Source: Candidatus Doudnabacteria bacterium (GTDB lineage: Bacteria > Patescibacteriota > Doudnabacteria > UBA920 > O2-02-FULL-48-8). From it: 64,000 bases of DNA. The notes below the pieces were generated by a model. The model did no database searches. It was not told the DNA's origin and saw only the letters and a program-made list of their open reading frames with translations. Within the stretch, counting starts at the first letter, position 1. Every line of letters starts with the position of its first letter. The position numbers and the translations under genes are program-made. Of this stretch, positions 1,861-61,023 are shown in pieces. The DNA lies in NCBI GenBank assembly GCA_016182875.1, contig JACPFQ010000001.1, positions 20 to 64,019 on the forward strand, given 5' to 3'.

Positions 1861-3031
1861 GTTTGTTTATAATTTCCGGAAATTTTTTTATAACGATGTC
1901 AATTTCCTGCTTGGTAGTTGCTTGGCCTAGTGTGAATCGGACTGTTGAGACTGTTTTGCTGGCAGCTTTACCTAGCGCTTTTATGACGTGAGATGGCTCA
2001 GATGAGCCAGACACACAGGCGGACCCGGTAGAAACCGCAAATCCGGCCAAATCCATGGCGGTTATGAGAGAGTCCTGGTCGATATCGCTGATCGTTATGC
2101 TTAGATTTTCCGGATTGCGCGACTCCCCTATGGGTCCATTTAATTCTACTCCGGGGATATTTTTTATTTGGTCCCAAAGTTCATCGCGGAGATTTCTGAT
2201 TTTTTTCGCTGATTTTTCCCGCTCTTCCAAAGACCCCAGAAGCTCCAGGGCCTTGGCCATGCCAATGATGCCTGCCGTATTTTGGGTTCCCGGCCGCATG
2301 TCATACTCCTGAGCGCCTCCTGACATCAGGTTGTCAATTTTGGTTCCGGTTTTGATGTACAAGGTGCCGATGCCTTTTGGTCCGTATAGTTTGTGAGCGG
2401 AAAGTGTCAGGAGGTCGCATCCGAGCTTTTCGACGTTGCAGTTATAGAATTTGGCGGCCTGAACGGCATCAGTGTGAAAAGCAATCTTATGGGAAGTTGA
2501 TAGACGAGAGTTGATAGATGATAGATGCTTGCCTATTTCCCGAACCGGCAGCACTGAGCCGATTTCGTTGGAGACGAAAATACATGAAACTAGAACGGTA
2601 TTATCTTTAATTTCTTTGATTATTTGGTCCGCTGAGATTTGCCCGTCAGGTGTCGGTTTGATAAAAGTCGCCTCGATCACTCCCCTTTTTTCCATTTCTT
2701 TTACGACGTTGTATACAGAATGATGCTCCAGTTCGGTTGTAATCACATGCGGCTTCATTCCCCATTCGAAAATCGCCTTGCTGACGATTCCCTTTATGGC
2801 GTGATTGTTGGCTTCGGTGGCCCCGGAGGTAAAAATAATTTCCTGCGGCTTGGCGTTGAGAAATTTGGCCACTGCCGCGCGCCCAAAGTCGATCTCAGCC
2901 CGCGCCTGCTGGCCTTCGCGGTGAACCGAGCTTGGGTTGCCGAAGTACTTTAATTCAAAATCACGCATCGCTTTGGATACGCGCTTATCAAGTGGTGTGG
3001 TCGCGGCATGGTCAAAGTAAATCCGGTTCAT
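1841..3031 (-). CDS. iscS: cysteine desulfurase, IscS/NifS family (class V aminotransferase)
   Basis: motifs HAATTP, SGATEANN, SAHKLYGPKGIG (PLP-lysine region) and C-terminal GSACxSG. Confidence 0.85.
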   Translation of the reverse strand: MNRIYFDHAATTPLDKRVSKAMRDFELKYFGNPSSVHREGQQARAEIDFGRAAVAKFLNAKPQEIIFTSGATEANNHAIKGIVSKAIFEWGMKPHVITTELEHHSVYNVVKEMEKRGVIEATFIKPTPDGQISADQIIKEIKDNTVLVSCIFVSNEIGSVLPVREIGKHLSSINSRLSTSHKIAFHTDAVQAAKFYNCNVEKLGCDLLTLSAHKLYGPKGIGTLYIKTGTKIDNLMSGGAQEYDMRPGTQNTAGIIGMAKALELLGSLEEREKSAKKIRNLRDELWDQIKNIPGVELNGPIGESRNPENLSITISDIDQDSLITAMDLAGFAVSTGSACVSGSSEPSHVIKALGKAASKTVSTVRFTLGQATTKQEIDIVIKKFPEIINKLRKYNK

Positions 3032-3404: not shown

Positions 3405-4742
3405 ATGCGCTACGCCTTCATTCTCGGCCGGGTTTACACCCTCTCTCTGGCCGAACTTTTACAAAAACTTGGTAATTTGGGGATTAACTATAAGGTTTTG
3501 GCCTGCGCGCCGGAAGTGGTCGTGCTCGAAACGGACCAGCCAATCCAAGCGGATAAGCTTCAGCCGCAGCTTGGCGGCATTATTAAAATTATACGACTTC
3601 TCGACACTTTTCAAAAGAAGGGCAAGGAATACCCTTCCAACGCGCTGATTAACTATTTCAATTTCAAGCGAATCAAATCAGACTATTTCGGCGAATACAG
3701 CGGCAAAAGGCAGTTCGGAGTGTCCATCTATTCGCTGGATCCAGCAATCCGGTTCCGTGAAGAGAGCAGCCGAATCGCCTTTTTAATCAAAAAAATCCTC
3801 CAGGAACAGTCAGTCAGCGTCCGGGCAGTATTGCCGCAGTTTCCTTCCATGGCGCTTTCGTCCGTGCAGGTCAACGAAAATCAGCTTCTCACCAAAGGCG
3901 CTGAGATCGTGGTTGTTTCGGGGACCCAAAGAGTGTTTGTGGGCAAGACTCTGACTGTCCAGAACTACGAGGATTATGGCAGAAGAGATTATCAGAGGCC
4001 GGCGCGGGATGAAAAAGTCGGCATGATTCCCCCCAAGGTCGCCCAGAGTATGATTAACATGGCCGGCAATCTTAAGCCGCTTGATTATATCTTGGACCCG
4101 TTCTGCGGCTCGGGAACCATCCTGCAGGAAGCTTTGCTTCTCGGCCTTCGCGCTATTGGTTCGGACCTGGAGGAAAAAATGATTCACAACAGCGAAAAAA
4201 ACTTGGAGTGGTTCCGCAACCGCTATCATGTGGCACCCGGCAGGTACAAGCTATTTGTCTCCGATGCCGCGGAAATTTCCCTCCAGCTCCCCCGCTTTCC
4301 TATTTCCGCGATTGTGACCGAAGGCACGCTCGGGCCGATATACGGCAAGGTTCCCAAAAAATCCGAAATGAAAGCCAATTTCAAGATGTTAAATAAGCTG
4401 TACACTCAAGTCTTTGCCGAATTTAAGAAATTTTTGCCCGAAGGCCACAGGGTGGTCATGTGCCTGCCGGCCTACAAGGCCAGCTTCACTGACTACGAAT
4501 ACATGGACACCGTTGACTTTGCGCTCAGCAACGGCTATACTGTTCTGGATTCGATTCCTCCCGAACTGGTCAAAAAATACAAGTTTCTCAAAGTCACTGA
4601 ACGCAAATCAATAGTTTACGACCGCAAGGATCAGGTGGTAGCCAGGGAGATCATTATCTTTCAATACGGTGAAGAGCGTTTGGAGTTAAGCGGTAACGAA
4701 GCCGGTATCGTTGAGAGTCAAACGTCAGACGTAACCGAATGA
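3405..4742 (+). CDS. class I SAM-dependent methyltransferase (putative RNA/DNA N-methyltransferase)
   Basis: motif I LDPFCGSGTILQEA; long N-terminal domain of unknown type. Confidence 0.5.
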   Translation: MRYAFILGRVYTLSLAELLQKLGNLGINYKVLACAPEVVVLETDQPIQADKLQPQLGGIIKIIRLLDTFQKKGKEYPSNALINYFNFKRIKSDYFGEYSGKRQFGVSIYSLDPAIRFREESSRIAFLIKKILQEQSVSVRAVLPQFPSMALSSVQVNENQLLTKGAEIVVVSGTQRVFVGKTLTVQNYEDYGRRDYQRPARDEKVGMIPPKVAQSMINMAGNLKPLDYILDPFCGSGTILQEALLLGLRAIGSDLEEKMIHNSEKNLEWFRNRYHVAPGRYKLFVSDAAEISLQLPRFPISAIVTEGTLGPIYGKVPKKSEMKANFKMLNKLYTQVFAEFKKFLPEGHRVVMCLPAYKASFTDYEYMDTVDFALSNGYTVLDSIPPELVKKYKFLKVTERKSIVYDRKDQVVAREIIIFQYGEERLELSGNEAGIVESQTSDVTE

Positions 4743-7104: not shown

Positions 7105-7176
7105 ATGCCGCTGGACGCAAGCACGCCTGCGGCCGTGCTCGACGGCATTCAGCAGCCGATTTGGCTGGATGCATGA
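7105..7176 (+). CDS. tiny G+C-rich ORF (23 aa) with AAAGGAG Shine-Dalgarno, first ORF of module 3
   Basis: ATG preceded by AAAGGAG; ends 15 nt before the next Shine-Dalgarno and ATG. Confidence 0.25.
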   Translation: MPLDASTPAAVLDGIQQPIWLDA

Positions 7177-7193
7177 TAGGGAGGGCATCAGAA

Positions 7194-7502
7194 ATGAGAG
7201 CCAACTTGAACGTCGCAAAAAAGGAAGTCACGATATACTTTGAGATGCTGGAGGGCAGCCGTGCCTCCTGTTTCTACTGCAAGCACCCTGGGGCGCCGTC
7301 CCGAAGTATTCAGATCAACCGAATGCTCGTCAGCGGTGCCGAGGTTGAGCGCGCCGAGGCGTTGTACAAGAGAGCCGCCGGCAAACTGCGCCATCTCGTC
7401 CACTCCGGCCGCCCGGTATGCGAGAGGCTTCAGTGCGAGGACGCTTGGCATCGCGATCTCATGGAGACGGATGAGGCCGCCATCGACCTGTATGCCGCCT
7501 AA
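7194..7502 (+). CDS. hypothetical protein, G+C-rich module 3 (102 aa, Cys-rich CFYCKH...CERLQCED)
   Basis: GGGAGGG Shine-Dalgarno before the ATG; visibly G+C-rich; terminator follows. Confidence 0.45.
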   Translation: MRANLNVAKKEVTIYFEMLEGSRASCFYCKHPGAPSRSIQINRMLVSGAEVERAEALYKRAAGKLRHLVHSGRPVCERLQCEDAWHRDLMETDEAAIDLYAA

Positions 7503-7503
7503 G

Positions 7504-7541
7504 TCCGCGGATTGCCCGTCAGCTCCGCGGTTATTTTTTTG
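7504..7541 (+). terminator. rho-independent terminator (CCGCGGA...TCCGCGG plus T8)
   Basis: inverted repeat followed by TTATTTTTTT. Confidence 0.5.
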
Positions 7542-7602
7542 GAGGATCCGCCGTCAACAGAAAGGGTGCTCTATGGGATAACGTAAGAAATAATTAATAC
7601 CA

Positions 7603-7636
7603 CGTTTTGGCCGTACGGCAATTTCATGATATAGTT
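7603..7636. repeat. operator-like palindrome TTTTGG-GCCGTACGGC-AATTT followed by GATATAGT (-10-like)
   Basis: 10-bp perfect palindrome; paralogous arrangement at 46139. Confidence 0.6.
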
Positions 7637-7670
7637 ATTTTGTTCTGTCAGAGTTGCACAGTTAACTTTA

Positions 7671-8200
7671 TGAAACGAAAGACAAAAAAGAAAATCAAGG
7701 CGTTGGGCAAATCGTTTGTGCTTGATCTTTTATTGATTGTGAAAGACTTGGCTGAGCTTTGGCCAGAGCCTTTCGAAAGCCCATATGCTTACCAGCGGCG
7801 GATTTCTAGCACCTATCCCCGATTTTCTCCCCAAAGGGTTAGTCGAAACTTATATTATTTGAAGAAACAAGGACTTATTGAGAAAAAGAAAGTGCGCAGC
7901 CGGTTTGTATATCAGTTGACGCTAAGCGGAAAACAAAAGCTTTTGATGTCGAAGATCAGTTTCAATAAGACTAATCCTAAAGATGGCACATCGTGCGTTA
8001 TTATCTATGATATTCCTAATGAAAAATACAAACATCGTAAGCTTTTGAGACGCTTTCTAATTAAAAACGGTTTTATGAACATTCAAAAGAGCGTGCTGAT
8101 AGGGCCGCAGTTTTTACCCAAGGAATTCCTTGAGCTTTTACATGAACTGGGTTTAAGACGAAATGTGACTATAATCAAGGGCAAGCTTTTATACTCCTAG
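7671..8200 (+). CDS. PaaX-like wHTH transcriptional regulator with Cas2-fold C-terminal domain (paralog 1)
   Basis: MKRKTKKKIK... wHTH-like YQLTLSGKQKL; C-terminal VIIYDIPNEKYKHRKLLRRFLIKNGFMNIQKSVLIG resembles Cas2/PaaX_C; paralog at 46178. Confidence 0.55.
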
Positions 8201-8250
8201 CACTATACTATATTTCGGCCGTACGGCAATTTTGTAGTATAGTTTTTTTG
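8201..8250. repeat. palindromic element CTATACTA-TATTTCG-GCCGTACGGC-AATTTTG-TAGTATAG plus T-run (terminator and second operator copy)
   Basis: nearly identical copy at 36186-36225 in opposite orientation. Confidence 0.6.
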
Positions 8251-8322
8251 GCGCAAAAAAAGTTATATCTGAGTATAACCTAGATATAACAAAAACCGCC
8301 CTTAAAGCGATTTTTTGGCTAA

Positions 8323-9156
8323 TTAAACAGCGACTGGTTGTTTCTGTTTCAGTGAGTCTAATCCTTTTTTTTGGATTTGATATCGATTTTCGCTTTTAAT
8401 AAAGTAGCCCTTTTTGCCGAAACTCTCTGTCAACGCTGACACCGCGTTCGTACTTATTTTTTCGAGTAGTTGGGTGGATATATATTCAATTTCTGTTGAT
8501 GTTAATGATGTTATATTATTAAGATATGCATATGCCAGTATCCATATAATCTTCATACCTTTTGAAGGCTGGTTATGAAAGTCTCCCAGTTCGTCTGAGT
8601 TAGGACTGACTATAAGATTTTTTACCTCCTCTCTAACGATTTTAATATTTGTACCCCTGGCGTTAGTTACTCGTCGTCTTTTTCGAGGGCTTTCTTCAGT
8701 TTCTTCTTTGAAGGAATTTTCTACTGATTTCAGCCCAGATTCCGAAAGGGCGTAGTCATCTGAGCCTGAATCAAGTTCGAAAACATACCCTAGCTGAATA
8801 GCAGTCTTAAAGTCTCGCGATAAGTTCTTCGGGGCTGGCTCACCAGATTTTTCAAATAACCTTTTAATGTCAACTGGTTTGAAGGATTCTAAATTTTGAC
8901 AATTTCTTAGATAGACAGCAAAAGCTGTGATCTTCTGGGCATTGGTTTTAGCGTTAGAATCGATGATAACTTGGCGAGGTCCCGATGAACTCAAGACCAA
9001 GTTAGGTTCTGACATTGCTGTTGCTGAAAGGTCCGATTTTTCTAAAACTTGGCGCTGCTCAGCATTTAAAAAAGCAATTATATGTGCGGCCTTTAATAAG
9101 TTTGTGTTTGTTTTGAAGGACAGGTCATCACCTTCTATTGTGACAAGTACGTTCAT
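8323..9156 (-). CDS. hypothetical protein (277 aa) in an AT-rich accessory segment
   Basis: ORF track; no recognisable motifs; lower G+C than flanks. Confidence 0.45.
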   Translation of the reverse strand: MNVLVTIEGDDLSFKTNTNLLKAAHIIAFLNAEQRQVLEKSDLSATAMSEPNLVLSSSGPRQVIIDSNAKTNAQKITAFAVYLRNCQNLESFKPVDIKRLFEKSGEPAPKNLSRDFKTAIQLGYVFELDSGSDDYALSESGLKSVENSFKEETEESPRKRRRVTNARGTNIKIVREEVKNLIVSPNSDELGDFHNQPSKGMKIIWILAYAYLNNITSLTSTEIEYISTQLLEKISTNAVSALTESFGKKGYFIKSENRYQIQKKGLDSLKQKQPVAV

Positions 9157-9405
9157 ATTTTCTCTCTATAGCGGTATTGAAGATACCGGCATTAATAATA
9201 TGCTATTAGCCTAATACTGTATGTCATTTTAGTCAACCTATTAAGCTAATGGTATAAAATGGCTTATTTAAAGCCTTTTACATCGTAAGTATATTTTCAT
9301 TGTAAAAGTTATCCACATGACTATAGGCCTGCAGTCAAGCCAGATAGTAGCCAGAACCATAATTACCTAACAAAAAACCACCTTTGAGGCGATTAATGTT
9401 AGCGC

Positions 9406-9780
9406 TCAGGCCTTGCTTATTACAGAAAGTATAATAAGAAGCCCAACAATGACGACTACAACAAGAAGTACTAATTGAACCTTGTTTTTAACTTGATTAT
9501 AGTTCGGAAATCTAGTTCTACCTAGATTATCAAGTTCTTTGGCAGCTTTTCCATACAAGTAAACTCTCATGAAGCCGAAGATAATGGAGAGAACACTAAT
9601 TACAAATAAGGGGATTACAACATTTAGAGTATATCCACTTCCGTGGACGCAGTCCAAAACAAATATATTTCGGGTTGGGCTATTGCAATCTACATTCAAA
9701 CTCAAGTACCACAAGTAGCCTGAGAGTAACAGAAGTATTACTCCGGCTATGATTAGTGAGCTTTTAAAATATCTGCTCAT
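9406..9780 (-). CDS. small membrane protein (3 TM)
   Basis: hydrophobic segments. Confidence 0.4.
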   Translation of the reverse strand: MSRYFKSSLIIAGVILLLLSGYLWYLSLNVDCNSPTRNIFVLDCVHGSGYTLNVVIPLFVISVLSIIFGFMRVYLYGKAAKELDNLGRTRFPNYNQVKNKVQLVLLVVVVIVGLLIILSVISKA

Positions 9781-11408
9781 TTTTTGTTTCTGACAGCAGC
9801 CTTCACGAATTCCCTAAACAGCGGTCCCGGATTAAGCGGTCTTGATTTGAATTCGGGGTGGAATTGGGTGCCGACGAAGAACGGATGGTCTTTGAGCTCG
9901 ATTATTTCCACGAGGAGGCCGTCGGGGGTGGTGCCGGAGAAGACGAAGCCTTTGGCTTCGAATTGTTTGCGGTATTTGTTGTTGAACTCATAGCGGTGGC
10001 GGTGGCGCTCGAAAATTCTTTTTTGGCCATAGGCCTTCAAGGCTTTACTGCTGTCCTTGAGGATACAGGGCCACGCGCCCAAGCGCATGGAAGCGCCATA
10101 ATCTTTTTTCAAAAGTTTTTTCTCCTGTTCGGGCATCAAGCCAATCACTGGATGTGGGGTTTTGGGGTCAACTTCAGTTGTATGGGCGCCTTTAAGACCC
10201 AAAACATTGCGGGCAAACTCGATAGTGGCCATCTGCATGCCGTAGCAGAGTCCCAGGTATGGGATTTTCTTGGTGCGGGCGTAGGTTATGGCTTTAATCA
10301 GTCCTTCGACTCCCCTTTTGCCAAAGCCCGGGGTAATCACGATGCCGTCATGGCCTTTCAAAACTTCTGCTCCGGATTTTTCCAGTTTCTCCGAATCAAT
10401 CCAGACCAGTTTCGGCTTGACCTTGTTGTGCCAGCTGGCGGCCTTGAGCGCCTCGATTATCGAAACATAGACGTCGGACAAATGATAATCGCCGGTGGCG
10501 AAGTATTTGCCGACTACGGCGATTTTGACTTCTTTTTTGGCGTTTTTGATATTACGGACTAATTTTTTCCACTCGGTCAAATCTTTTTTGGCAGCCGGCA
10601 GACCTAATTTTGCCAGGATTTTCTCGCCAAGCTTCTGATTCTGCATGACCAGCGGCACTTCGTATATGGACTGGACGTCGGGGGTGGAAATAACGTCGTC
10701 TTTTTTGACGTTGCAAAACAGCGCGATGCGCTCTTTTCTTTTGTCGTCAACTGCAAATTCGGAGCGGGCAATAATAAAATCAGGCTGAATCCCCATGGAG
10801 TTCATAAGCCTGACTGATTGCTGGACCGGTTTGGATTTCATCTCGCCGATGTTGCTGGGGATCGGAAGATACGCGACATGGACTTGAATGACGTCCTGCG
10901 GGTTTCTAAGCCTCATGATGCGGGAAGCTTCGAAGAAAATGGCGTTTTGGTATTCGCCGACCGTGCCGCCGAGCTCAATCATGACGATGTCGGACTTTTT
11001 GCCGGCAAGCTTGATGCGGTGGATGATTTGGTCCGTAATGTGCGGAATGGCCTCGACGTCTTCGCCGTCGTATTCAAACGCGCGCTCCCGGCGCAGGACC
11101 TCGGCGTAAACCTGGCCGGTAGTCACATAATTTACTTTGGATAAATTGACGTCGAGGAACCGCTCGTAATGCCCCAGGTCCTGGTCAGTCTCCATGCCGT
11201 CCTCAGTGACGAAGACTTCGCCGTGCTCCTGGGGCCGGATGGTGCCCGCGTCCTGGTTGAGGTACATGTCGATTTTGATCGGCGAGACGGCGTAGCCTCG
11301 GCTTTTTAAAATCGCCGCGATGGACGCGGTCGTGATTCCTTTGCCGAGGCCCGAAATGACCCCGCCGGAAACGAAAATGTATTTTGTGGCGCGCTTGTTC
11401 TTAGCCAT
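9777..11408 (-). CDS. pyrG: CTP synthase
   Basis: MAKNKRATKYIFVSGGVISGLGKGITTAS...; glutamine amidotransferase C-terminal LGLCYGMQ; start at the internal Met after 12 upstream codons. Confidence 0.93.
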   Translation of the reverse strand: MAKNKRATKYIFVSGGVISGLGKGITTASIAAILKSRGYAVSPIKIDMYLNQDAGTIRPQEHGEVFVTEDGMETDQDLGHYERFLDVNLSKVNYVTTGQVYAEVLRRERAFEYDGEDVEAIPHITDQIIHRIKLAGKKSDIVMIELGGTVGEYQNAIFFEASRIMRLRNPQDVIQVHVAYLPIPSNIGEMKSKPVQQSVRLMNSMGIQPDFIIARSEFAVDDKRKERIALFCNVKKDDVISTPDVQSIYEVPLVMQNQKLGEKILAKLGLPAAKKDLTEWKKLVRNIKNAKKEVKIAVVGKYFATGDYHLSDVYVSIIEALKAASWHNKVKPKLVWIDSEKLEKSGAEVLKGHDGIVITPGFGKRGVEGLIKAITYARTKKIPYLGLCYGMQMATIEFARNVLGLKGAHTTEVDPKTPHPVIGLMPEQEKKLLKKDYGASMRLGAWPCILKDSSKALKAYGQKRIFERHRHRYEFNNKYRKQFEAKGFVFSGTTPDGLLVEIIELKDHPFFVGTQFHPEFKSRPLNPGPLFREFVKAAVRNKK

Positions 11409-13697: not shown

Positions 13698-13751
13698 TTG
13701 CAGGTCAAATTTTCAGTACCTGGCATGCGTGGTTATTATATCATGCAAGTT

Positions 13752-13807
13752 GTCATTCTGAACGCAGTGAAGAATCTCATGAGATCCTTCGCTCCGCTCA
13801 GGATGAC
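13752..13807. repeat. 56-bp composite palindrome GTCATTCTGA...ATCTCATGAGAT...TCAGGATGAC (copy 1 of 2)
   Basis: second copy at 40118-40173 with reciprocal transitions. Confidence 0.6.
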
Positions 13808-13815
13808 ACAAAACA

Positions 13816-15228: not shown

Positions 15229-15717
15229 TTACCTTTCGTAAGTGGCCCAGGTGAATTCCTCGTGTGGCTCTTCGTTGGTCCTTTTCCACTCTGATAAATC
15301 GATTTGTGGGAAAAGCACATCGCCCTCAACCTCTCTGTGTACGTGGGTCATATAGATTCTATCAACCTTTCCCATTTCAGCCAACTGGCTGAAAATCTGC
15401 CCGCCGCCAATCACCATCAGCTCATCTAGTCCCTCTGACATAAAATAAGCGATCGCTGAATTTATGTCATGGAAGATTAGAACTTCATGAGGGGCTTGAA
15501 AATCAGTCTGCCTGGTTATAACAACATTTCTTCGATTTGGCAAAGGTTTGCCCAACCGGCCAATAATTGAGTCGTAAGTTTTTTTGCCCATCAACACCGT
15601 GCGGCCGTCGGTAACTTTTTTGAAGTGCTTGAGATCTTCGGGGATATAGAAAGGCAGGTCGTTGTGCGACCCTATGACCCCATTCTTAGCGACTGCCACC
15701 ACAAAAGAAATTTTCAT
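15229..15717 (-). CDS. folA: dihydrofolate reductase
   Basis: MKISFVVAVAKNGVIGSHNDLPF...LMGKKTYDSI...VIGGGQIF. Confidence 0.88.
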   Translation of the reverse strand: MKISFVVAVAKNGVIGSHNDLPFYIPEDLKHFKKVTDGRTVLMGKKTYDSIIGRLGKPLPNRRNVVITRQTDFQAPHEVLIFHDINSAIAYFMSEGLDELMVIGGGQIFSQLAEMGKVDRIYMTHVHREVEGDVLFPQIDLSEWKRTNEEPHEEFTWATYER

Positions 15718-36185: not shown

Positions 36186-36225
36186 CTATACTATGAAATT
36201 GCCGTACGGCCGTTTTGTAGTATAG
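36186..36225. repeat. third copy of the GCCGTACGGC palindromic element (CTATACTA-TGAAATT-GCCGTACGGC-CGTTTTG-TAGTATAG), overlapping the cca stop codon
   Basis: near-identical to 8201-8250 in inverse orientation. Confidence 0.6.
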
Positions 36226-37588
36226 CCTTTAGGTCTTTAACGTTTTTTATTTTGCCCAAAACTATTTGAGTCTTAACTTCAGATATCTTCTGGCCGAGAG
36301 CGCGGCCGGGTTTGAGATCTGAAAGCTTCATGATCAGCTCTCCCTTGGCAAGCTTATCAATAAGCGTTTTTTTATTATTAATTTGCCTTAAAAACCGTGA
36401 GCCGATCTCGAGCACCCTTACGCTCCTTCTTCTATACCATTCATTCGCTGAGGTCATGATATTGCCCTCCAAATCAGCGCGCCACAAATCCAGGAGCAAA
36501 TTGAAATTCTCGTTAAATGCGTACATTGCCTGTTCCTCCGGGGTCATTTTCAGAAATGACCGCTTGCCGTGATGCTCGATCAGCCAGGCTACCGCTTCCT
36601 TATCGTTTCTGGAAAAGCGAAGTCTTCGCGCGAAGCCCAAAAAAATCTCCCTCGAAGCCTGTTCGTGCCCTTTAGTCGAGATGACCTGGCCCTCGTCCTT
36701 TATAGCTTCTTGGCCCACCATCGGCTTGCCGATGTCGTGAAGAAGGGCCGCATAAAAAAGGTTTATATTGCGGACCTTAACCCCGCTTAAAACCAAAAGC
36801 GCGTGCTCAAATTGCGAGCCCTCCAGGTGATAGTGTTTCGACTTATGATAAAAGTTCTTAAGCGGCTCAAATTCAGGGATTAAGAATTTCAGCAGATCCA
36901 CCTGGTCCAAAAGCCTCATTCCCTGCACTCTATTTTTGGAAAGTAAAATCTTATCCAGTTCGGATTTGACTCTTTCACTGGGGATTCCTTGGATATATTT
37001 TGCCCGGGTTTTGATGGCGGCAAAACTATTCTTTTCAAGCTTAAACCCAAACTGAGCGCTAAAACGAACGGCGCGAAGCATTCTGAGATGGTCCTCATCA
37101 ATTCTTTTTTTAGGATCACCCACGAACCGAATCAGTCTGGCCTTCATATCCCTCAAGCCCCCGACTGGGTCTAGCAGTTCTCTTTTTATAGGATTAAAAT
37201 AAAGAGCATTGATTGTAAAATCGCGGCGTTTGGCGTCCTCTCTATAATCTTTAATAAAATTAACTTTGTCAGGATGCCGCTTGTCGCTATATTTGCCCTC
37301 TGACCGAAAGGTAGTAATCTCAATGGGCACACTTTTAACGATCGTTAAAAGTGTGCCCCACTGTTTGCCCACGCGCTTAACTGGCAAATCAAGTTCTCTC
37401 AAAACCTTTTCAACTTGCTCGGGACGTGCAGAAGTGGTTACATCTAAATTGTCGGATTTGCGCCTCAGCAAAAAATCGCGAACAAAACCCCCGACAAAAA
37501 AAGTCTGGTGTCCTTCCCTATGCAAAAATCGGACAATTCTCATGCCCGATTTTTCCAGTGAGGTTCTTGGTTTCCAATTCAAATGCAT
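36191..37588 (-). CDS. cca: CCA-adding enzyme / tRNA nucleotidyltransferase with HD domain
   Basis: polymerase-beta-type NTase head GGFVRDFLL...DVT; HD motif LLHDIGKP. Confidence 0.82.
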   Translation of the reverse strand: MHLNWKPRTSLEKSGMRIVRFLHREGHQTFFVGGFVRDFLLRRKSDNLDVTTSARPEQVEKVLRELDLPVKRVGKQWGTLLTIVKSVPIEITTFRSEGKYSDKRHPDKVNFIKDYREDAKRRDFTINALYFNPIKRELLDPVGGLRDMKARLIRFVGDPKKRIDEDHLRMLRAVRFSAQFGFKLEKNSFAAIKTRAKYIQGIPSERVKSELDKILLSKNRVQGMRLLDQVDLLKFLIPEFEPLKNFYHKSKHYHLEGSQFEHALLVLSGVKVRNINLFYAALLHDIGKPMVGQEAIKDEGQVISTKGHEQASREIFLGFARRLRFSRNDKEAVAWLIEHHGKRSFLKMTPEEQAMYAFNENFNLLLDLWRADLEGNIMTSANEWYRRRSVRVLEIGSRFLRQINNKKTLIDKLAKGELIMKLSDLKPGRALGQKISEVKTQIVLGKIKNVKDLKAILQNGRTAIS

Positions 37589-38104: not shown

Positions 38105-38199
38105 AAAATTGGCATTAGTGGTTATTCGGCAGAGCTGCGCGTATCGTCTTGTGGTAGTGTTGAGCGTTAGCTTGCAGTTACTTCCCCTCCTAGGATAGG

Positions 38200-38320
38200 A
38201 GGGGAAGTAAAAGAATTGGGTTGGGCAGGGGAGGTACGGTTCAAGCTTGTACTCTACCCCACCTAACCTCCAGCCCCCGGCGGCAGGTGAGGGAGAGGGT
38301 TTCTATTCTAGGGGAGGAAT
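38200..38320. repeat. G-rich REP-like palindromes (CTTCCCCTCCTAGGATAGGAGGGGAAG; GGGGAGGTACGGTTCAAGCTTGTACTCTACCCCACCTAACCTCC; TTCTATTCTAGGGGAGGAAT)
   Basis: perfect 12-bp-arm palindrome; a 50-bp unit repeated at 41124-41172. Confidence 0.65.
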
Positions 38321-38345
38321 CCTGGCGCTTGCGGTTAAACGCAAG

Positions 38346-39746
<1,401 letters not shown>

Positions 39747-39773
39747 TTAATGGCTCAAAAGGAGGATGCCGAC

Positions 39774-39995
39774 ATGAAAGACATTTCTCGGCTTTCTGAC
39801 AGAACGCTACTGAACCGGTTCGAACGGGCGTGCGGCTGGCCCGCGTATAGGATGCCACGTGCGGAAGTGAGAAAACTGAAGCGTGAGCTTCTCCGTCGGC
39901 TCGGATCCAAGAAGAACGCGTCGGGGACCCGCAACGGAATGACGCCACTGCCGCCGGATTCATTCGACGCGGCGAATGCCGACAGCATTCGGTGA
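39774..39995 (+). CDS. hypothetical protein, G+C-rich module 6 (73 aa, Arg-rich)
   Basis: AAAGGAGG upstream of the ATG; G+C-rich; terminator follows. Confidence 0.45.
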   Translation: MKDISRLSDRTLLNRFERACGWPAYRMPRAEVRKLKRELLRRLGSKKNASGTRNGMTPLPPDSFDAANADSIR

Positions 39996-40013
39996 ACCCG
40001 ATGGGCGCTGCAC

Positions 40014-40058
40014 GTGCGAGTTGCTCACGCACTTTGTGAGCGACTCGCCTTTTTTATC
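40014..40058 (+). terminator. rho-independent terminator (GCGAGTTGCTCAC...GTGAGCGACTCGC plus CTTTTTTAT)
   Basis: 13-bp stem with one mismatch followed by a T-run. Confidence 0.55.
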
Positions 40059-40117
40059 TGCTAATGATCTTACTGCAATACGGGGAAGCATTACAGTATT
40101 CAGGGAGTACCCTTACT

Positions 40118-40173
40118 GTCATCCTGAACGCAGTGAAGGATCTCATGAGATTCTTCGCTCCGCTCAGAATGAC
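40118..40173. repeat. 56-bp composite palindrome, copy 2 (GTCATCCTGA...ATCTCATGAGAT...TCAGAATGAC), followed by a T-run
   Basis: matches 13752-13807 with reciprocal transitions. Confidence 0.6.
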
Positions 40174-40179
40174 ATTTTT

Positions 40180-41088
40180 TTATCCTTCCATGGCCAATTT
40201 GGCAGCGGAAATTTCCGACAACTCTTTGGTGATTCCTGCCTGCCTGGCCTGGTTATAGCTTAATGTCAGATCATCGATCAGATCACCGGCGGCGTCGTTG
40301 GCATTCTTCATGGCTACCATTCTCGCTGAATGCTCGGACGCGACCGCTTCCACCAGACACTGGTAAATCGCAAATTCAACCGTGCTTCCTATCAACCGCT
40401 CCAAAACCTCAATAGGACTTGGCTCAAAAAGATACTCTAATCCGTGATCTGTAATCTGTGATCCGTCGTCTGCAAATGGCAAGAGTTGAATCATATTCGG
40501 TTTTTGAACCAGGGTGGAAACAAAATCAGTATAAACGGCAAAAACTTTTTCGTATTTGAGCGCCAAATAGTCCGCGATCGCAATCTCGGCGATCGGGCGC
40601 GCGTCCAAAATCGAAATGTTTTTGTCTTTGCCGTCAAAAGCCGCGATAACGTTCAGCTTCATTCTTCGCGCGCTGTCAGAGCCTTTTTTGCCTATCGTAA
40701 TCAAATCGATTTTTTCGGCTCCCTCGGATTTAATCACGTTCAAAGCTTTATTTATGACGTTTGAGTTCAAGGCGCCAGCAAGCCCTTTGTCCGATGTTAT
40801 GAGAATCAGCAAAGTCCGAGGGATCATACCCCCCCTATCCCCCCCTATCTTAGGGGGGGATGAAGGGGGGGTAACTACTCGCTTAATCAAGGGATACTCC
40901 AGCAGATCTGCCTTTGTGGCCAGGCGCCTGATGAGTTCGCCGGAAAGTTGGGCGTAGGGACGCGACGCGATTGCCGCTGCCTGGGCTTTGCGCATCTTGG
41001 CCGCCGCCACCAGTTCCATCGCCTTGGTGATTTTGGCGATGTTTTGAGTAGATTTAATGCGTCTGCGAATTTCCCTAGATGATGGCAT
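40180..41088 (-). CDS. atpG: F0F1 ATP synthase subunit gamma, carrying an in-frame REP-like insertion (VTPPSSPPKIGGDRGGMIPR)
   Basis: MPSSREIRRRIKSTQNIAKITKAMELVAAAKMRKAQ...; the insertion is encoded by CCCCCCC-TATCTTA-GGGGGGG palindromic DNA at 40805-40870. Confidence 0.88.
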   Translation of the reverse strand: MPSSREIRRRIKSTQNIAKITKAMELVAAAKMRKAQAAAIASRPYAQLSGELIRRLATKADLLEYPLIKRVVTPPSSPPKIGGDRGGMIPRTLLILITSDKGLAGALNSNVINKALNVIKSEGAEKIDLITIGKKGSDSARRMKLNVIAAFDGKDKNISILDARPIAEIAIADYLALKYEKVFAVYTDFVSTLVQKPNMIQLLPFADDGSQITDHGLEYLFEPSPIEVLERLIGSTVEFAIYQCLVEAVASEHSARMVAMKNANDAAGDLIDDLTLSYNQARQAGITKELSEISAAKLAMEG

Positions 41089-41100
41089 ATGGTTTTATTC

Positions 41101-41195
41101 CCCTCCTAGGTTAGGAGGGGCTAGGGGAGGTACGGTTCAAGCTCGTACTCTACCCCTCCTAACCTCCCCTATTCTAGGGGAGGAATTTTTACGCA
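41101..41195. repeat. G-rich REP-like palindromes (CCCCTCCTAGGTTAGGAGGGG; second copy of the 50-bp GGGGAGGTACGGTTCAAGCTCGTACTCTACCCC unit; CCCTATTCTAGGGGAGG)
   Basis: same family as 38200-38320. Confidence 0.65.
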
Positions 41196-42682
41196 AAACC
41201 TTTCTTAAATTCTTCAATTACCTTCTTCAATTCTGGTTCGACTTCTTTTTCAAGGTCTTTAGCGCTTAAGATGGCTTGCAGCAATTTCTTATGCTGCACT
41301 TTCAGGAACTGATGAAACTTTGATTCCCAATCGCGGATTTTATCCAAAGGCACATCGTCCAGATACCCGTTGGTCGCGGCATAAATAATCGCCACCTGGT
41401 TTTCAACCGGCATGGGCTGATATTGATCCTGCTTGAGCACCTCGGTGATCCTGCGGCCGCGCTCGATGCGGGCTCTGGTTTGCGGGTCGAGGTCAGAAGC
41501 AAACTGGGCGAATGCGGCTAGCTCCCGGAATTGCGCCAGGTCCAGTCGAAGCTTGCCGGCTACTTTTTTCAGCGATTTGATTTGCGCCGCTGAACCCACG
41601 CGGGAAACCGAAATACCCACATTCAAGGCCGGCCTGATGCCCTGATAAAACAAATCTGATTCCAAATAAATCTGGCCGTCAGTAATGGAAATGACATTGG
41701 TCGGGATGTAGGCCGAAACATCCCCGGCCTGCGTTTCGATGATTGGCAAGGCCGTCAATGAACCGCCGCCGTGTTGTTTGCTTAATTTCGCCGCACGCTC
41801 AAGCAGGCGCGAGTGCAGATAGAACACGTCTCCAGGATACGCCTCTCTTCCAGGCGGCCTGCGGAGCAGCAGGGAGATTTCGCGGTAAGCCACGGCATGC
41901 TTGGACAAATCATCATAAATAATTAAAGCGTCCTTGCCCTGGTCCATGAAGTATTCGCCCATGGCCGCACCAGCAAATGGCGCTAAATACGAAAATGAAG
42001 CAGGGTCAGAGGCCCCAGCCACCACAATGATTGTGTGCTTCATGGCGTCATTCTTTTCCAGTTCGCCCATGATGCGGGCGATTTTGGATTCCTTCTGCCC
42101 GATGGCGACATAGATGCAAATTACGTTTTTCCCCTTTTGGTTGATAATAGTGTCAATCGCAATCGCGGTTTTGCCGGTCTGTCTATCCCCAATAATCAAT
42201 TCGCGCTGTCCCTTGCCGATAGGAATCATGCCGTCAATCGCCTTAATGCCGGTCTGAAGCGGCTGGTTTACCGGCTGCCTGGCCATGACCCCGGGCGCGA
42301 TTTTTTCAAGCGGATATGAAGTTTTTGAACTGATCGGACCTTTGTTGTCCACTGGCTGGCCTAGAGGATTAACTACGCGGCCAATAAACCCTTCACCTAC
42401 GGGCACTGACAAAATCTTCCCTGTGCCCTTAACCCTATCCCCTTGTTTTATGTGTTCATAATTGCCCAGAAGAATCGCGCCAATAGTGTCCTGCTCCAGA
42501 TTTAAGGCAACTCCGAGAGTGCCGCCTGTAAACTCAAGCATTTCCGAAGCCTTCGCGTTTGAAAGCCCTGAAACGCGGGTAATGCCGTCGCCCACGGCCA
42601 GAACCGTGCCAACCGTTTCCGCTTTGGTCTCAGCCTGAAACTTTTCGATTTTAGCTTTCAATTGCTCGATAAGGTTGCTCAT
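41189..42682 (-). CDS. atpA: F0F1 ATP synthase subunit alpha
   Basis: [20 protein letters not shown], full-length alpha. Confidence 0.95.
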
Positions 42683-42683
42683 A

Positions 42684-43097
42684 CTACTCTTGGATATTTT
42701 TCTTTAATTCGGCCAGCGATTTTTTAACAGACGCATCGATCATCAGGTCATCAACGGCCACCACCACGCCCCCGATCAAGTTTTCGTCAATTTTTTTCTT
42801 CAACTCGACTTTGCCTTTTAAGTACTTGTTAAGCACCTCTACTATCTGTTTCTCGTTGTCAGAATTTAAGGGATGAGATGAGGCTACTTCGGCCTGTTTG
42901 ATACCTTTGCTTTCCAATTCCTTCTTATGGAATTCCGCTTCGATCTCACCGAACATTCTCAAGTCGTTGTTCTCGGACAAAATCCGCACAAAATTATCTA
43001 AAATCTTATCCAAGTCCTTGGGAGAAGTGTTGATAGCAACCTCGTGCAAAGCGGCGGCATATTGTCTGGCAGAAAATTTCATAGGTTTTCTTTGCAT
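42684..43097 (-). CDS. atpH: F0F1 ATP synthase subunit delta (OSCP)
   Basis: position between atpA and atpF; ARQYAAAL...[20 protein letters not shown]. Confidence 0.75.
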
Positions 43098-43215
43098 CTA
43101 CCCCTCTTAGTCTCCCCTATTCTAGGGGAGAAACCCTAACGCTTTACCTGAAGGATTCGGCCGCAGTTTTACCCTCCTAGAATAGGAGGGTCGGCGGTTG
43201 TTTAAAGCTAACACT
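43098..43215. repeat. G-rich REP-like palindromes (CCCCTATTCTAGGGGAG / CCCTCCTAGAATAGGAGGG)
   Basis: same family as 38200 and 41101. Confidence 0.6.
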
Positions 43216-46068: not shown

Positions 46069-46138
46069 GCTAATTATAAAATCGATTCTGACTTGAAAAT
46101 TATATCAAATCCGCATCGGACGCACAATCCAATATCGC

Positions 46139-46168
46139 TTTTGGTCGATCGACAACTTTTGATATAAT
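46139..46168. promoter_or_regulatory. operator-like palindrome TTTTGG-TCGATCGAC-AACTTTT followed by GATATAAT (-10) for PaaX-like paralog 2
   Basis: 10-bp palindrome GTCGATCGAC; same architecture as 7603-7636 but a different core. Confidence 0.6.
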
Positions 46169-46177
46169 ATTGCTACC

Positions 46178-46708
46178 ATGAAGCGAAGAACTAAGAAAAG
46201 AATCAAGCAAGCGGCTCAAACGTTTATGTCGCAATTGCTTTGGACAATCAGAGATCTGGCAGACGCAATGCCATCTCCTTTTGAAACCAAGGGTCAATAC
46301 CAACGCCGAGTTTGGAGCAATTTGCCGAGGTACCCTGTACAAAAAATCCAGTTTGGCATGAGCAGGCTCAAGCAGCAAGGCTTAGCCAGGGAAAGCAAGA
46401 AGCGCAGATTTGTCCTGGAATTGACTCTAGAGGGCCGGCGCAAACTGCTGATCAGGCAAATTAGCTCTAAGCGGAAACCAACTAGGGACGGCCGGTCAAC
46501 AATCATCATATTTGACATTCCTGAGGAAAAACGCAGGCATCGAGCCTTTTTGCGGCGGCTGTTGTTAAAAAACGGTTTCATGAATTTGCAAAAAAGCGTC
46601 CTTATAAGCCGCTTCGAGCTGCCAGACGAGTTTTTCGAATTGTTAAAAGAATTGGGACTATACCAAAACGTAACGATGATCAAGGGTCAAATACAATTCC
46701 GGAGTTAA
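46178..46708 (+). CDS. PaaX-like wHTH transcriptional regulator with Cas2-fold C-terminal domain (paralog 2)
   Basis: alignable over its length with 7671..8200 (MKRRTKKRIK..., IIIFDIPEEKRRHRAFLRRLLLKNGFMNLQKSVLIS). Confidence 0.55.
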   Translation: MKRRTKKRIKQAAQTFMSQLLWTIRDLADAMPSPFETKGQYQRRVWSNLPRYPVQKIQFGMSRLKQQGLARESKKRRFVLELTLEGRRKLLIRQISSKRKPTRDGRSTIIIFDIPEEKRRHRAFLRRLLLKNGFMNLQKSVLISRFELPDEFFELLKELGLYQNVTMIKGQIQFRS

Positions 46709-46718
46709 AAAAATGTCA

Positions 46719-46740
46719 CTTTTCGTCGATCGACAATTCT
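46719..46740. repeat. second GTCGATCGAC palindrome copy (CTTTTCGTCGATCGACAATTC) downstream of paralog 2
   Basis: mirrors the downstream GCCGTACGGC copy of paralog 1. Confidence 0.55.
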
Positions 46741-46764
46741 TGGCATTCCATAAGTAGGTATGTG

Positions 46765-60364: not shown

Positions 60365-61023
60365 TGCCTGTCGGTGAGACGATTCTAATGTCTCACCGCC
60401 GGACTGATTTGGACGAAAGAATCCGTGTCTTCAAGACGAGGAGCGGCATGTCCACTCAGTCCGTCCTTTTCTCAAGCATAGACAATCGCATTTGCGAGGA
60501 CCCCGGACTCCGATCCGGGGAACGAAGCAATCTAATCTTGAGAAAGGGTGCGATGTTGCGATTGTTCTTGAATGGACGAAGGGACATGCGCACCCTCGTG
60601 GCGGACGAAAATATTTATGTCCTTTACTGGACGAATGAGGGAGTGTCCGCCACGAAATTTTAAACCGGAGGAATCAAGTTTGGTGAGACGAGGTGCGAGG
60701 TGTCCGCTAGGAGGACGAACTTAGTGGTGTCTCACCACCGGACTGAAAGACGAATCCAAGGATGTCTCTTGTAGACGATGGGTCGTATGTCATTTCAGTC
60801 CGGCCTTTTCCAAATGATTCATCTACGAAATAGAACTCCCCTCTCCTGGAGAGGAGAGGGGTCGGGGGTGAGGTGGATTATTCATTTGGAAAGGGTACGA
60901 GAGTTTCATTGTCCATATAGGACGAACCACCGACTGTACCCTTTTGGCGGACGATTGATAGCATGTCTGAAGTAGACGAGCATGTCTTTGTCCGCTACCA
61001 CGTTCCTTTTCAAGGAGTGCGCC
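60365..61023 (+). ncRNA. candidate structured non-coding RNA array (about 8 stem-loop modules with conserved stems and variable loops) upstream of the recombinase gene
   Basis: stems GGTGAGAC/GTCTCACC, GTGGCGGAC/GTCCGCCAC, AGGGTRCG/CGYACCCT, CCGGACTGAAA/TTTCAGTCCGG; inner hairpins GTCY-N5-8-RGACGA; promoter upstream. Confidence 0.5.

Follow-up and report, generated by a model that had tools for sequence, protein, structure and literature searches.

In repression by looping or roadblock, a primary operator over the promoter is paired with a second cognate site some hundred base pairs downstream, as in the lac (O1/O2), gal (OE/OI) and deo systems. PaaX is a repressor that responds to phenylacetyl-CoA in Escherichia coli and Pseudomonas. 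It blocks RNA polymerase at its own promoter and thereby represses itself; in E. coli its site, TGATTC-N27-GAATCA, is a 39-bp sequence with widely spaced inverted half-sites (PMC9493321). Here we describe two paralogous genes, W1 and W2, that encode short PaaX-like proteins in a 64,000-nucleotide stretch of a Candidatus Doudnabacteria genome (contig JACPFQ010000001.1, positions 20 to 64,019; this whole stretch is called the window hereafter), each of which is bracketed by two copies of its own palindromic element. To our knowledge, transcription control in bacteria of the candidate phyla radiation (CPR) is almost unexplored. We propose, with a probability of roughly 0.6, that each of these genes encodes a self-repressing dimer with two cognate operators, which would act by a DNA loop or a roadblock. 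Literature searches for PaaX in combination with Cas2-like, Patescibacteria or CPR found, in the library covered, no description of this protein family or of its bracketing elements.

The proteins W1 and W2 are 51% identical (E = 2e-61, pairwise protein comparison), and both combine a winged helix with a Cas2-like domain, as the original prediction had it; the start that it gave for gene 1 (7671) is off by one base (Table 1). The Pfam model PaaX_M (PF20803) matches them with E = 2.5e-12 (47.1 bits) and 4.6e-13 (49.5 bits) at a cut-off of 24, and in their N-terminal halves profile searches returned weak winged-helix matches of the PadR/MarR/ArsR type only. In an AlphaFold2 (AF2) model (pLDDT 77), a long basic N-terminal helix is followed by a helix-turn-helix, a beta-hairpin wing and a beta-alpha-beta-beta-alpha-beta domain (residue ranges in Table 1). 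When folds in the PDB were ranked against it, E. coli PaaX (8a39) came first, followed by many Cas2 chains and PadR-like regulators; the matches to PaaX and the PadR-like proteins extend over the winged-helix region, and the Foldseek probability for Cas2 chains is 0.98-1.0. Sequence and model together thus identify W1 and W2 as predicted short PaaX-like proteins of winged-helix/Cas2-fold type.

PaaX shares with W1 and W2 the N-terminal winged helix followed by a Cas2-like domain, which in PaaX is the central dimerisation domain, and the geometry of its site resembles the outer arms of the putative W1/W2 operator (8-bp arms, about 22 bp apart, within a footprint of 38-40 bp). However, PaaX has about 305-316 residues, including a C-terminal helical effector domain for phenylacetyl-CoA, whereas W1 and W2 end at residue 176, directly past the Cas2-like domain. 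In agreement with this, the PaaX equivalog model TIGR02277 gives only 29.0 and 25.8 bits against a cut-off of 264.55, with model positions ~37-146 of 279 matched. No paa genes were found among the called neighbours of 16 related loci or beside either gene in the window. Since both the effector domain and the paa context are lacking, W1 and W2 are not PaaX equivalogs. Their sites differ as well, having an extra conserved inner palindrome and a second copy directly past the stop codon, and a CPR genome of ~1 Mb has several paralogs of their family, every one of them with a separate site of its own.

The likeness to Cas2 is confined to the C-terminal domain, which has the ferredoxin-like beta-alpha-beta-beta-alpha-beta fold and the motif (I/V)(I/V)FD(I/L)P...R..LR..L...GF...QKSV and is fused here to a winged helix, unlike Cas2 itself. 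In profile matches this domain aligns with type II and type V Cas2 (6jhz and 8ia4), including the Asp of FD(I/L)P; no member of the family departs from this residue (Asp114), which ends beta1 in an FDIPE-type sequence and corresponds to the Cas2 catalytic position. The Cas2 models score at or just under their cut-offs (Pfam, 23.6 versus 23.8; TIGR01573, 24.5 versus 24.5), and weak Cas2 models were the sole matches reported by PADLOC. Repeat searches of the window found no CRISPR-like array, and neither cas1 nor other cas families occur among the window genes or the called neighbours of related loci, so W1 and W2 are not CRISPR Cas2 proteins. A weak N-terminal likeness in sequence and fold connects them with BlaI/MecI and PadR-type regulators, dimeric repressors that bind palindromic operators overlapping promoters; those regulators differ in having a helical dimerisation module rather than a Cas2-like one and in lacking a second, downstream operator copy.

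The family is very large, with at least 4,770 clusters at 50% identity (E <= 1e-3), or 1,658 at E <= 1e-10. Its members are labelled in the sources as hypothetical, 'PaaX' or 'Cas2', and all those identified come from CPR bacteria. A database protein that is identical carries the label Candidatus Doudnabacteria, which makes the source of the window a CPR bacterium. A profile search of all 411 open reading frames (ORFs) in the window recovered W1 and W2 only. At least two other metagenome-assembled genomes carry several paralogs (three in MFER01, two each in MFEL01 and JAHFJG01), and the related locus L030 (related loci are given L-numbers) has a second, partial member at the contig edge (1-178), at a distance of 4.8 kb from the first; this member, too, has a downstream element (188-230), centred 31 nt past its stop codon. 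Antisense to gene 2, a 129-aa ORF (46294..46683, minus strand) stays open in many related loci (38-55% identity by tblastn); conservation of the sense frame probably accounts for it, and it is then not a gene.

The elements around the two genes were recognised from two 10-bp palindromes, which are present in the sequence where the original prediction placed them. Exact copies of GCCGTACGGC and GTCGATCGAC occur nowhere else in the 64 kb than in the elements of Table 1, three of the former and two of the latter, and by our own estimate about 0.06 occurrences per 10-mer would be expected in the window by chance. Each gene has exact copies of its own palindrome on both sides, so that the predicted bracketing is real. 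The strings quoted for the 5' sides ('TTTTGG-GCCG' and 'TTTTGG-GTCG') contained the right parts with one G doubled; they read TTTTG-GCCGTACGGC and TTTTG-GTCGATCGAC. Similarity between the two sides reaches well past the 10-mers, the best-matching upstream and downstream 44-mers agreeing at 35/44 positions around gene 1 and at 31/44 around gene 2. The downstream element of gene 1 starts 3 nt past the stop codon and is followed by a run of seven T (8243-8249). A chance origin of the palindromes was ruled out, with exact copies at these places only and far lower scores at control ORFs (see below).

Table 1. Genes, bracketing elements and related palindromes in the window (positions are those of the window; residue numbers refer to the W1 protein)
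Feature	Position	Strand	Description
Gene 1 (W1)	7670..8200	+	176-aa protein
W1 protein parts			basic N-terminal helix; H40-48; recognition helix H54-66; wing 70-83; Cas2-like/PaaX_M domain ~105-172
Gene 1 upstream element	7596..7635	+	composite palindrome, centre GCCGT/ACGGC (7610-7619)
Gene 1 predicted promoter, inside upstream element	7607-7612; 7627-7635	+	-35 TTGGCC; extended -10 TGATATAGT
Gene 1 downstream element	8203..8242	+	CTATACTAT-ATTTCG-GCCGTACGGC-AATTTT-GTAGTATAG; core 8218-8227
Gene 2 (W2)	46178..46708	+	176-aa paralog of W1
Gene 2 upstream element	46130..46168	+	centre GTCGA/TCGAC (46144-46153)
Gene 2 predicted promoter, inside upstream element	46141-46146; 46160-46168	+	-35-like TTGGTC; 16-nt spacer; extended -10 TGATATAAT
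Gene 2 downstream element	46711..46748	+	centre GTCGATCGAC (46725-46734), 21 nt past stop; without -10
Solo W1-type element	36186..36225	.	core GCCGTACGGC (36201-36210)
Orphan element	37325..37358	.	perfect 34-bp palindrome GGGCACACTTTTAACGATCGTTAAAAGTGTGCCC inside the cca coding sequence
Orphan CGATCG-centred palindrome	15433..15471	.	TGACATAAA...TTTATGTCA arms, 16/22 symmetric

The bracketing is not peculiar to this pair of genes but a family-wide trait. A matched pair of elements in direct orientation was found in 28/28 non-redundant related loci. These comprise 23 loci with GATC/GTAC-centred pairs, to which the counts below refer unless stated otherwise; L028, where both copies are present and the contig end cuts the downstream one; and, retrieved by a search with P0100, four loci in Doudnabacteria, Taylorbacteria and a Parcubacteria group bacterium that belong to a distant subfamily and have the same layout with the centres CCATGG, TCGA and GATAGC. 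Direct identity averages 32.8/44 within a locus versus 19.7/44 between loci, and the two copies are more alike in direct than in inverted orientation in 22/23 loci. By comparison, 62 control ORFs in the window gave a mean of 23.3 (sd 1.6, maximum 28) of 44, against a family median of 34. Among the loci examined, the association of bracketing with the W1/W2 family is complete, the weakest case being L003, where an indel displaces the arms.

The centre of the upstream copy lies 16-151 nt before the ATG, mostly 28-81 nt, and that of the downstream copy 18-29 nt past the stop in 19/23 loci, close enough for its left arm often to contain the stop codon; the two centres are 516-668 bp apart. The value of 151 nt belongs to L009, where about 12 tandem copies of the 10-bp unit ATGA(C/T)TAAAT (2878-3003) stand between the upstream element and the start of the family gene and push the element outward. 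L007 (2756-2798) and L017 (2775-2817) have extra element copies about 100-130 bp 5' of the regular upstream copy; the extra copy in L017 shares the outer arms (TGTCCAA/TTGGACA) and has the centre CGATCG instead of CGTACG. Among control ORFs of related loci, high values were seen only in L023, in a tandem paralog array and at rpsG. The latter gene, which encodes S7, is bracketed at 7150-7850 by two copies, 40/44 identical, of another AT-rich palindrome (TTTTGAATTTCGATTGA...TATTCGAAATT), and bracketing of genes by repeats is for this reason not exclusive to the family.

What unit is repeated on the two sides was then read from a profile of the 23 loci, which come from related genomes and metagenomes, with every element centred on its dyad. 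The original prediction of a 10-bp operator embedded in an identical scaffold did not survive this comparison. The unit is a composite palindrome of about 38 bp whose outer arms are symmetric and specific to the locus, just as its inner arms are, and the supposedly shared -10 box consists, in the upstream copy, of such outer arms. Positions ±1-3 are invariant, CG(A/T)(T/A)CG. The inner arms (±4-7) and the outer arms (±12-19, 8 bp each and ~22 bp apart) vary between loci, are symmetric in 0.65-0.83 of loci, and agree between the upstream and downstream copies of one locus in 0.65-1.0. Between them, at ±8-11, one and the same strand is rich in T to the left and to the right of the centre, with a symmetry of only 0.17-0.48, which makes the element polar. 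Similarity ends at ±19, for an overall length of 38-40 bp. The symmetric blocks are centred at about ±5.5 and ±15.5 bp and therefore lie on one face of the helix. Positions that break Watson-Crick symmetry have no G:U bias on either strand, which argues that symmetry is kept at the level of DNA and not as an RNA hairpin.

The two copies differ in their relation to transcription. In upstream copies, a -35 motif (TTGnCC) falls at element positions -8 to -3 and a -10 motif (TAnnnT), often with an extended TG, at +16 to +21, 16-18 nt further on. A scan tool reported the promoter of gene 1 as TTGGCC-17-TATAGT with TG (7607-7635); that of gene 2, TTGGTC-16-TGATATAAT, was read directly from the sequence, the consensus scan having skipped it because its -35 matches in only 3/6 positions. 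Promoter-like sequences were counted in 16/23 upstream copies in the sense direction and in 4-5/23 for each of the upstream antisense, downstream sense and downstream antisense directions. Position +19, within the -10, carries 0.91 bits in upstream and 0.09 bits in downstream copies. The upstream copy thus overlaps the promoter, and the downstream copy keeps the arms without it.

These counts bear on the suggestion that the downstream copy is a second regulated promoter, serving the next gene or an antisense RNA, and that each pair forms a small two-promoter regulon. Individual loci would suit it: the downstream copy of L030 contains TTGGCC-16-TATAAT, that of W1 reads TTGCCG-16-TATAGT on the minus strand (8229..8202), a tRNA-like sequence (read by eye) comes next on the same strand in L025 and L027, and the quasi-symmetric upstream copy of L015 could drive the divergent, displaced Aminotran_5 gene. 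Across the loci, however, promoter-like sequences were counted in no more than 5/23 downstream copies for the sense and 4/23 for the antisense direction, downstream copies have lost the information at the -10, and most of the loci for which genes were called have a convergent gene next. A role of the downstream copy as a second promoter was ruled out on the first two of these grounds, and we regard a two-promoter regulon as extremely unlikely.

A different explanation would take the protein out of the matter altogether: the elements might be structural hairpins in RNA or DNA (intrinsic or bidirectional terminators, or REP-like repeats) that no protein reads, so that their association with the family would be incidental. 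The downstream element of W1 does fold strongly as RNA (-16.9 kcal/mol, z = -4.3) ahead of its U7, and a solo copy at a convergent tRNA/cca junction (described below) reaches -16.7/-20.2 kcal/mol; other palindromic repeat families exist in the window, and at L023 the unrelated rpsG is bracketed by a palindromic 44-mer. Yet the hairpins are weak at W2 (-7.5 kcal/mol, z = -1.0), L004, L015 and L016 (z between -1.0 and -1.5 over these four loci), with L030 at z = -2.5, so that only the W1 and solo copies fold strongly and a general function of the downstream copy as an intrinsic terminator was ruled out. The U-run after the element is not conserved, positions +20 to +22 being uninformative, and G:U bias is absent on the transcribed strand. 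Most of the upstream copy lies 5' of the predicted transcription start. The complete bracketing of family loci, compared with at most 28/44 at window control ORFs and higher controls only in L023, and the covariation of the arms with the recognition helix, to which we now turn, also speak against incidental hairpins, a reading that we consider very unlikely.

Which protein could read the arms follows from their variability. No two loci have the same arms, which excludes a shared host factor as their reader, and the gene between the two copies encodes the sole protein that is specific to the locus; Xer/dif-like sites and integron attC-like sites for a host recombinase were rejected on the same ground. 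The DNA-binding half of the protein is likewise the more variable one, with 2.0-2.4 bits per column versus 1.28 in the Cas2-like half. In line with the diverged DNA specificity of the original prediction, the recognition helix is where the paralogs differ most: in an alignment of W1 with W2, 3/13 residues are identical there, compared with 43/66 for the Cas2-like domain. Over the loci, the distance between outer arms correlates with that between recognition helices (r = 0.30, p = 0.0005), also as a partial correlation given the Cas2-domain distance, which serves as a proxy for ancestry (r = 0.24, p = 0.001). For the inner arms the correlation is weaker (r = 0.17, p = 0.05), and the spacer is uncorrelated.

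Syntenic orthologs give a second line of evidence. W2, L003 and L029 (59-61% identity) all have the atp operon and a tRNA gene as neighbours at one end and a NUDIX gene at the opposite end. The core is GTCGATCGAC in the two copies of W2 and of GTCCGATCGGAC type in the two copies of L003 and of L029; the cores differ at both copies, and therefore four half-sites have changed together.

From these observations we infer binding, repression, an oligomeric state and a loop or roadblock, as follows. The protein would be, in effect, PaaX minus its effector domain and would recognise its own composite palindrome of ~38 bp. Its mode of working would be that of autorepressors such as PaaX, PadR or BlaI, supplemented by an auxiliary operator. 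In the upstream copy, which spans the core promoter, the left inner arm supplies the predicted -35 (TTGnCC) and the right outer arm the -10, and a protein bound to it would occupy about -50 to -7 of the promoter. RNA polymerase should thereby be kept out, so that the gene would repress itself. The promoterless copy at or just past the stop codon is most likely an auxiliary operator, for which two modes of action can be envisaged: it may loop with the upstream copy across the ~520-670-bp gene for cooperative binding, or protein bound to it may form a roadblock at which the transcript of the gene ends and which protects the gene against transcription from its neighbour, in most cases a convergent one. 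Divergence of paralogs in both recognition helix and arms would have produced protein/site pairs that do not cross-react, and a solo site like that at the 3' end of cca would then be an additional target. The layout would be that of the lac, gal and deo systems, except that here the second site has a constant place throughout the family, at the 3' end of the monocistronic gene for the regulator itself; no candidate tetramerisation element was identified.

Several points weigh against this autorepressor model. It is unlikely that one dimer reads all four symmetric blocks (±5.5 and ±15.5 bp); more than one dimer, or further contacts by the basic N-terminal helix, the wing or the Cas2-like dimer, may engage the element. 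The polar T-rich spacer and a -35-like TTG persist in the promoterless downstream copy, and a pure model of symmetric binding predicts neither. The covariation of arms and helix is modest and only partly corrected for shared ancestry. Nearby targets only bracket the regulator's own gene, solo sites in the 64 kb amounting to one of W1 type and zero of W2 type, and no physiological output is evident. Finally, gain and loss at the level of the cassette, together with the invariant Cas2-type Asp, leave room for a selfish or catalytic role.

The last point deserves a closer look, since comparison of related genomes shows that the cassette of element, gene and element behaves as a discrete unit of insertion and deletion. 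In L015, L014 and L026 it separates an Aminotran_5 gene, at its start codon, from an ArfC-family gene, at its stop codon; in the window these two genes are 4 bp apart. The 650-bp difference in L015 is made up of the two elements, the gene and, outside the elements, 38 nt at the left and 7 nt at the right end. In L009, whose flanks are ~72% identical in nucleotide sequence, the cassette is part of a 1.6-kb extra segment beside tRNA-Arg that the window does not have. The original suggestion of a MITE-like cassette is therefore right as to cassette-precise presence and absence between genomes; inverted ends, target duplications and multiple near-identical copies, which it would also entail, are lacking.

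Accordingly, the main rival to the autorepressor holds that the unit is a selfish or mobile cassette whose Cas2-like metal-binding domain nicks or recombines DNA at CG(A/T)(T/A)CG. The elements would be its ends and the solo elements scars or attachment sites, with autoregulation through the promoter-bearing end as a secondary trait, as in insertion sequences. The precise insertions at the Aminotran_5/ArfC junction and the extra segment of L009 would fit, as would the occurrence of W1-clade members in at least three gene contexts, the position of gene 1 within a low-GC island, the overlap of the solo element with a gene end beside tRNA genes, and the invariant Asp at the catalytic position of a domain that aligns with true Cas2. 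On the other hand, the ends are direct and not inverted. Target-site duplications are absent, the longest shared flank averaging 3.5 nt versus 3.9 nt in a null of shuffled pairings, and so, within the 64 kb of the window, are near-identical copies; paralogs within a genome are 35-51% identical. The synteny of W2, L003 and L029 at only 59-61% identity indicates long vertical residence, and no family homologs were found in collections of plasmids, phages and viral contigs. A fixed catalytic core is further weakened by the other centres (CCATGG, TCGA, GATAGC) of the distant subfamily. No Cas2 fold is known to act as a recombinase. We rank a mobile cassette with a catalytic Cas2-like domain below the autorepressor and think it unlikely.

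Insertion sequences and REPtrons resemble the cassette in that a gene is flanked by cognate sites, the left site lies over the gene's own promoter, and insertion and deletion are discrete. They differ from it in what W1 and W2 lack: the repeats here are direct, there are neither target duplications nor multicopy identical elements, and profile searches gave no transposase or HUH/Y1 family match in either protein. With three W1-type and two W2-type copies in 64 kb, the abundance typical of REP-like repeats is not reached. On account of the direct repeats and the missing target duplication and transposase, the unit is not an insertion sequence, MITE or REPtron. A more far-reaching alternative is an autonomous CPR module of a kind not recognised before, in which the protein would excise, copy or relocate its cassette by Cas2-type metal-site cleavage at the centre, or would build a transcriptional insulator around itself and the solo sites. 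This we judge quite unlikely; if true for excision, copying or relocation, it would mean a Cas2-fold site-specific DNA enzyme independent of CRISPR.

The surroundings of gene 1 are compositionally distinct. The AT-rich segment that had been noticed next to it is real (GC 0.37 at 7600-9800 versus 0.486 for the window) and includes gene 1 itself (GC 0.39), the drop in GC beginning at its upstream element. Two ORFs of this island have no family match, one of 277 aa (8323..9156) and one that encodes a 124-aa predicted membrane protein (9406..9780).

Returning to sites that stand apart from a family gene, the third W1-type element overlaps the cca stop codon as originally described: the stop (36191-36193, minus strand) lies inside its left arm, the overlap with cca (36191..37588, minus strand) takes in the last ~11 codons, and tRNA-Asp ends 54 nt before it. 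Its match to the downstream copy of gene 1 is 32/38 inverted and 30/38 direct, and no further W1- or W2-type site in the 64 kb rises above the background of 23/38. It could be a regulon target or a roadblock at the convergent tRNA/cca junction, or else the scar of a recombination between flanking copies.

Two further palindromes in the window may be sites for paralogs encoded outside it. The perfect palindrome within cca, much too long for a chance occurrence (about 4e-6 expected per 64 kb by our own estimate), has the CGATCG-centred architecture of the bracketing elements with other arms, and no cognate gene for it is present in the window. It encodes GTLLTIVKSVP, at a place where other CCA enzymes, such as that of Bacillus subtilis, have a stretch of the same length. 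The second lies inside a dihydrofolate reductase gene (15229..15717, minus strand); its membership of the class is uncertain because its outer arms are 2 bp closer to the centre. Overall, 7/20 CGATCG/CGTACG hexamers in the window fall within 44-mers of at least 13/22 symmetry.

Repeats of other kinds were seen in the window and in related loci. A scan of the window against Rfam returned tRNAs only. A 58-nt palindromic repeat (TGTCATTCTGAACGCAGTGAAGAATCTCATGAGA...) has two copies, 93% identical, at 13751-13808 and 40117-40174, and a related palindrome, TGTCATCCTGAAC...GGAATGACA, occurs in L014 near 4130-4165. Palindromic repeat families of CCCCTCC/GGAGGGG type (D5, D8, D14 and D20) lie between the genes of the atp region (38182-43191). 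A high-GC ORF of 433 aa (60982-62283) has a weak match to Transposase_20 of the IS110 family, below the cut-off (E = 5.5e-4). Its flanks (60560-61010 and 62440-62990) contain arrays of short hairpin-like units ending in GACGA, such as TGTCCTTACAGGACGA and GTACCCTCGTGGCGGACGA, without an Rfam match, and a 187-nt repeat stands on both sides (60713-60899 and 62610-62796, 95% identical); the region 60560-62990 may be an IS110-type element with structured non-coding flanks. In L009 (1865-2060), tRNA-Arg(CCG) at 1910-1984 seems to be nested in a second tRNA-like sequence, interrupted in the region of its D-arm, with the inverted repeat CCCGCCCGACCGCCTGAC/GTCAGGCGGGCGGG on either side of the insert.

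The same layout in every relative examined suggests a large, undescribed set of self-contained repressor-operator pairs, and a very large protein family thereby gains a cis-partner that can be tested together with a likely function. Since every gene comes with its site in duplicate, the family amounts to a natural, self-annotating catalogue of hundreds to thousands of protein/operator pairs, suited to working out the recognition code of winged helices and to supplying orthogonal repressors for synthetic biology. A conserved promoterless site at the stop codon, not described before as a trait of a family, would point to self-insulation, looping or roadblock termination in compact genomes. In addition, the invariant Cas2-type Asp and the gain and loss of cassettes keep open a possible link of Cas2-fold proteins to site-specific DNA transactions outside CRISPR. 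The elements also mark promoters of CPR bacteria that would be usable in experiments.

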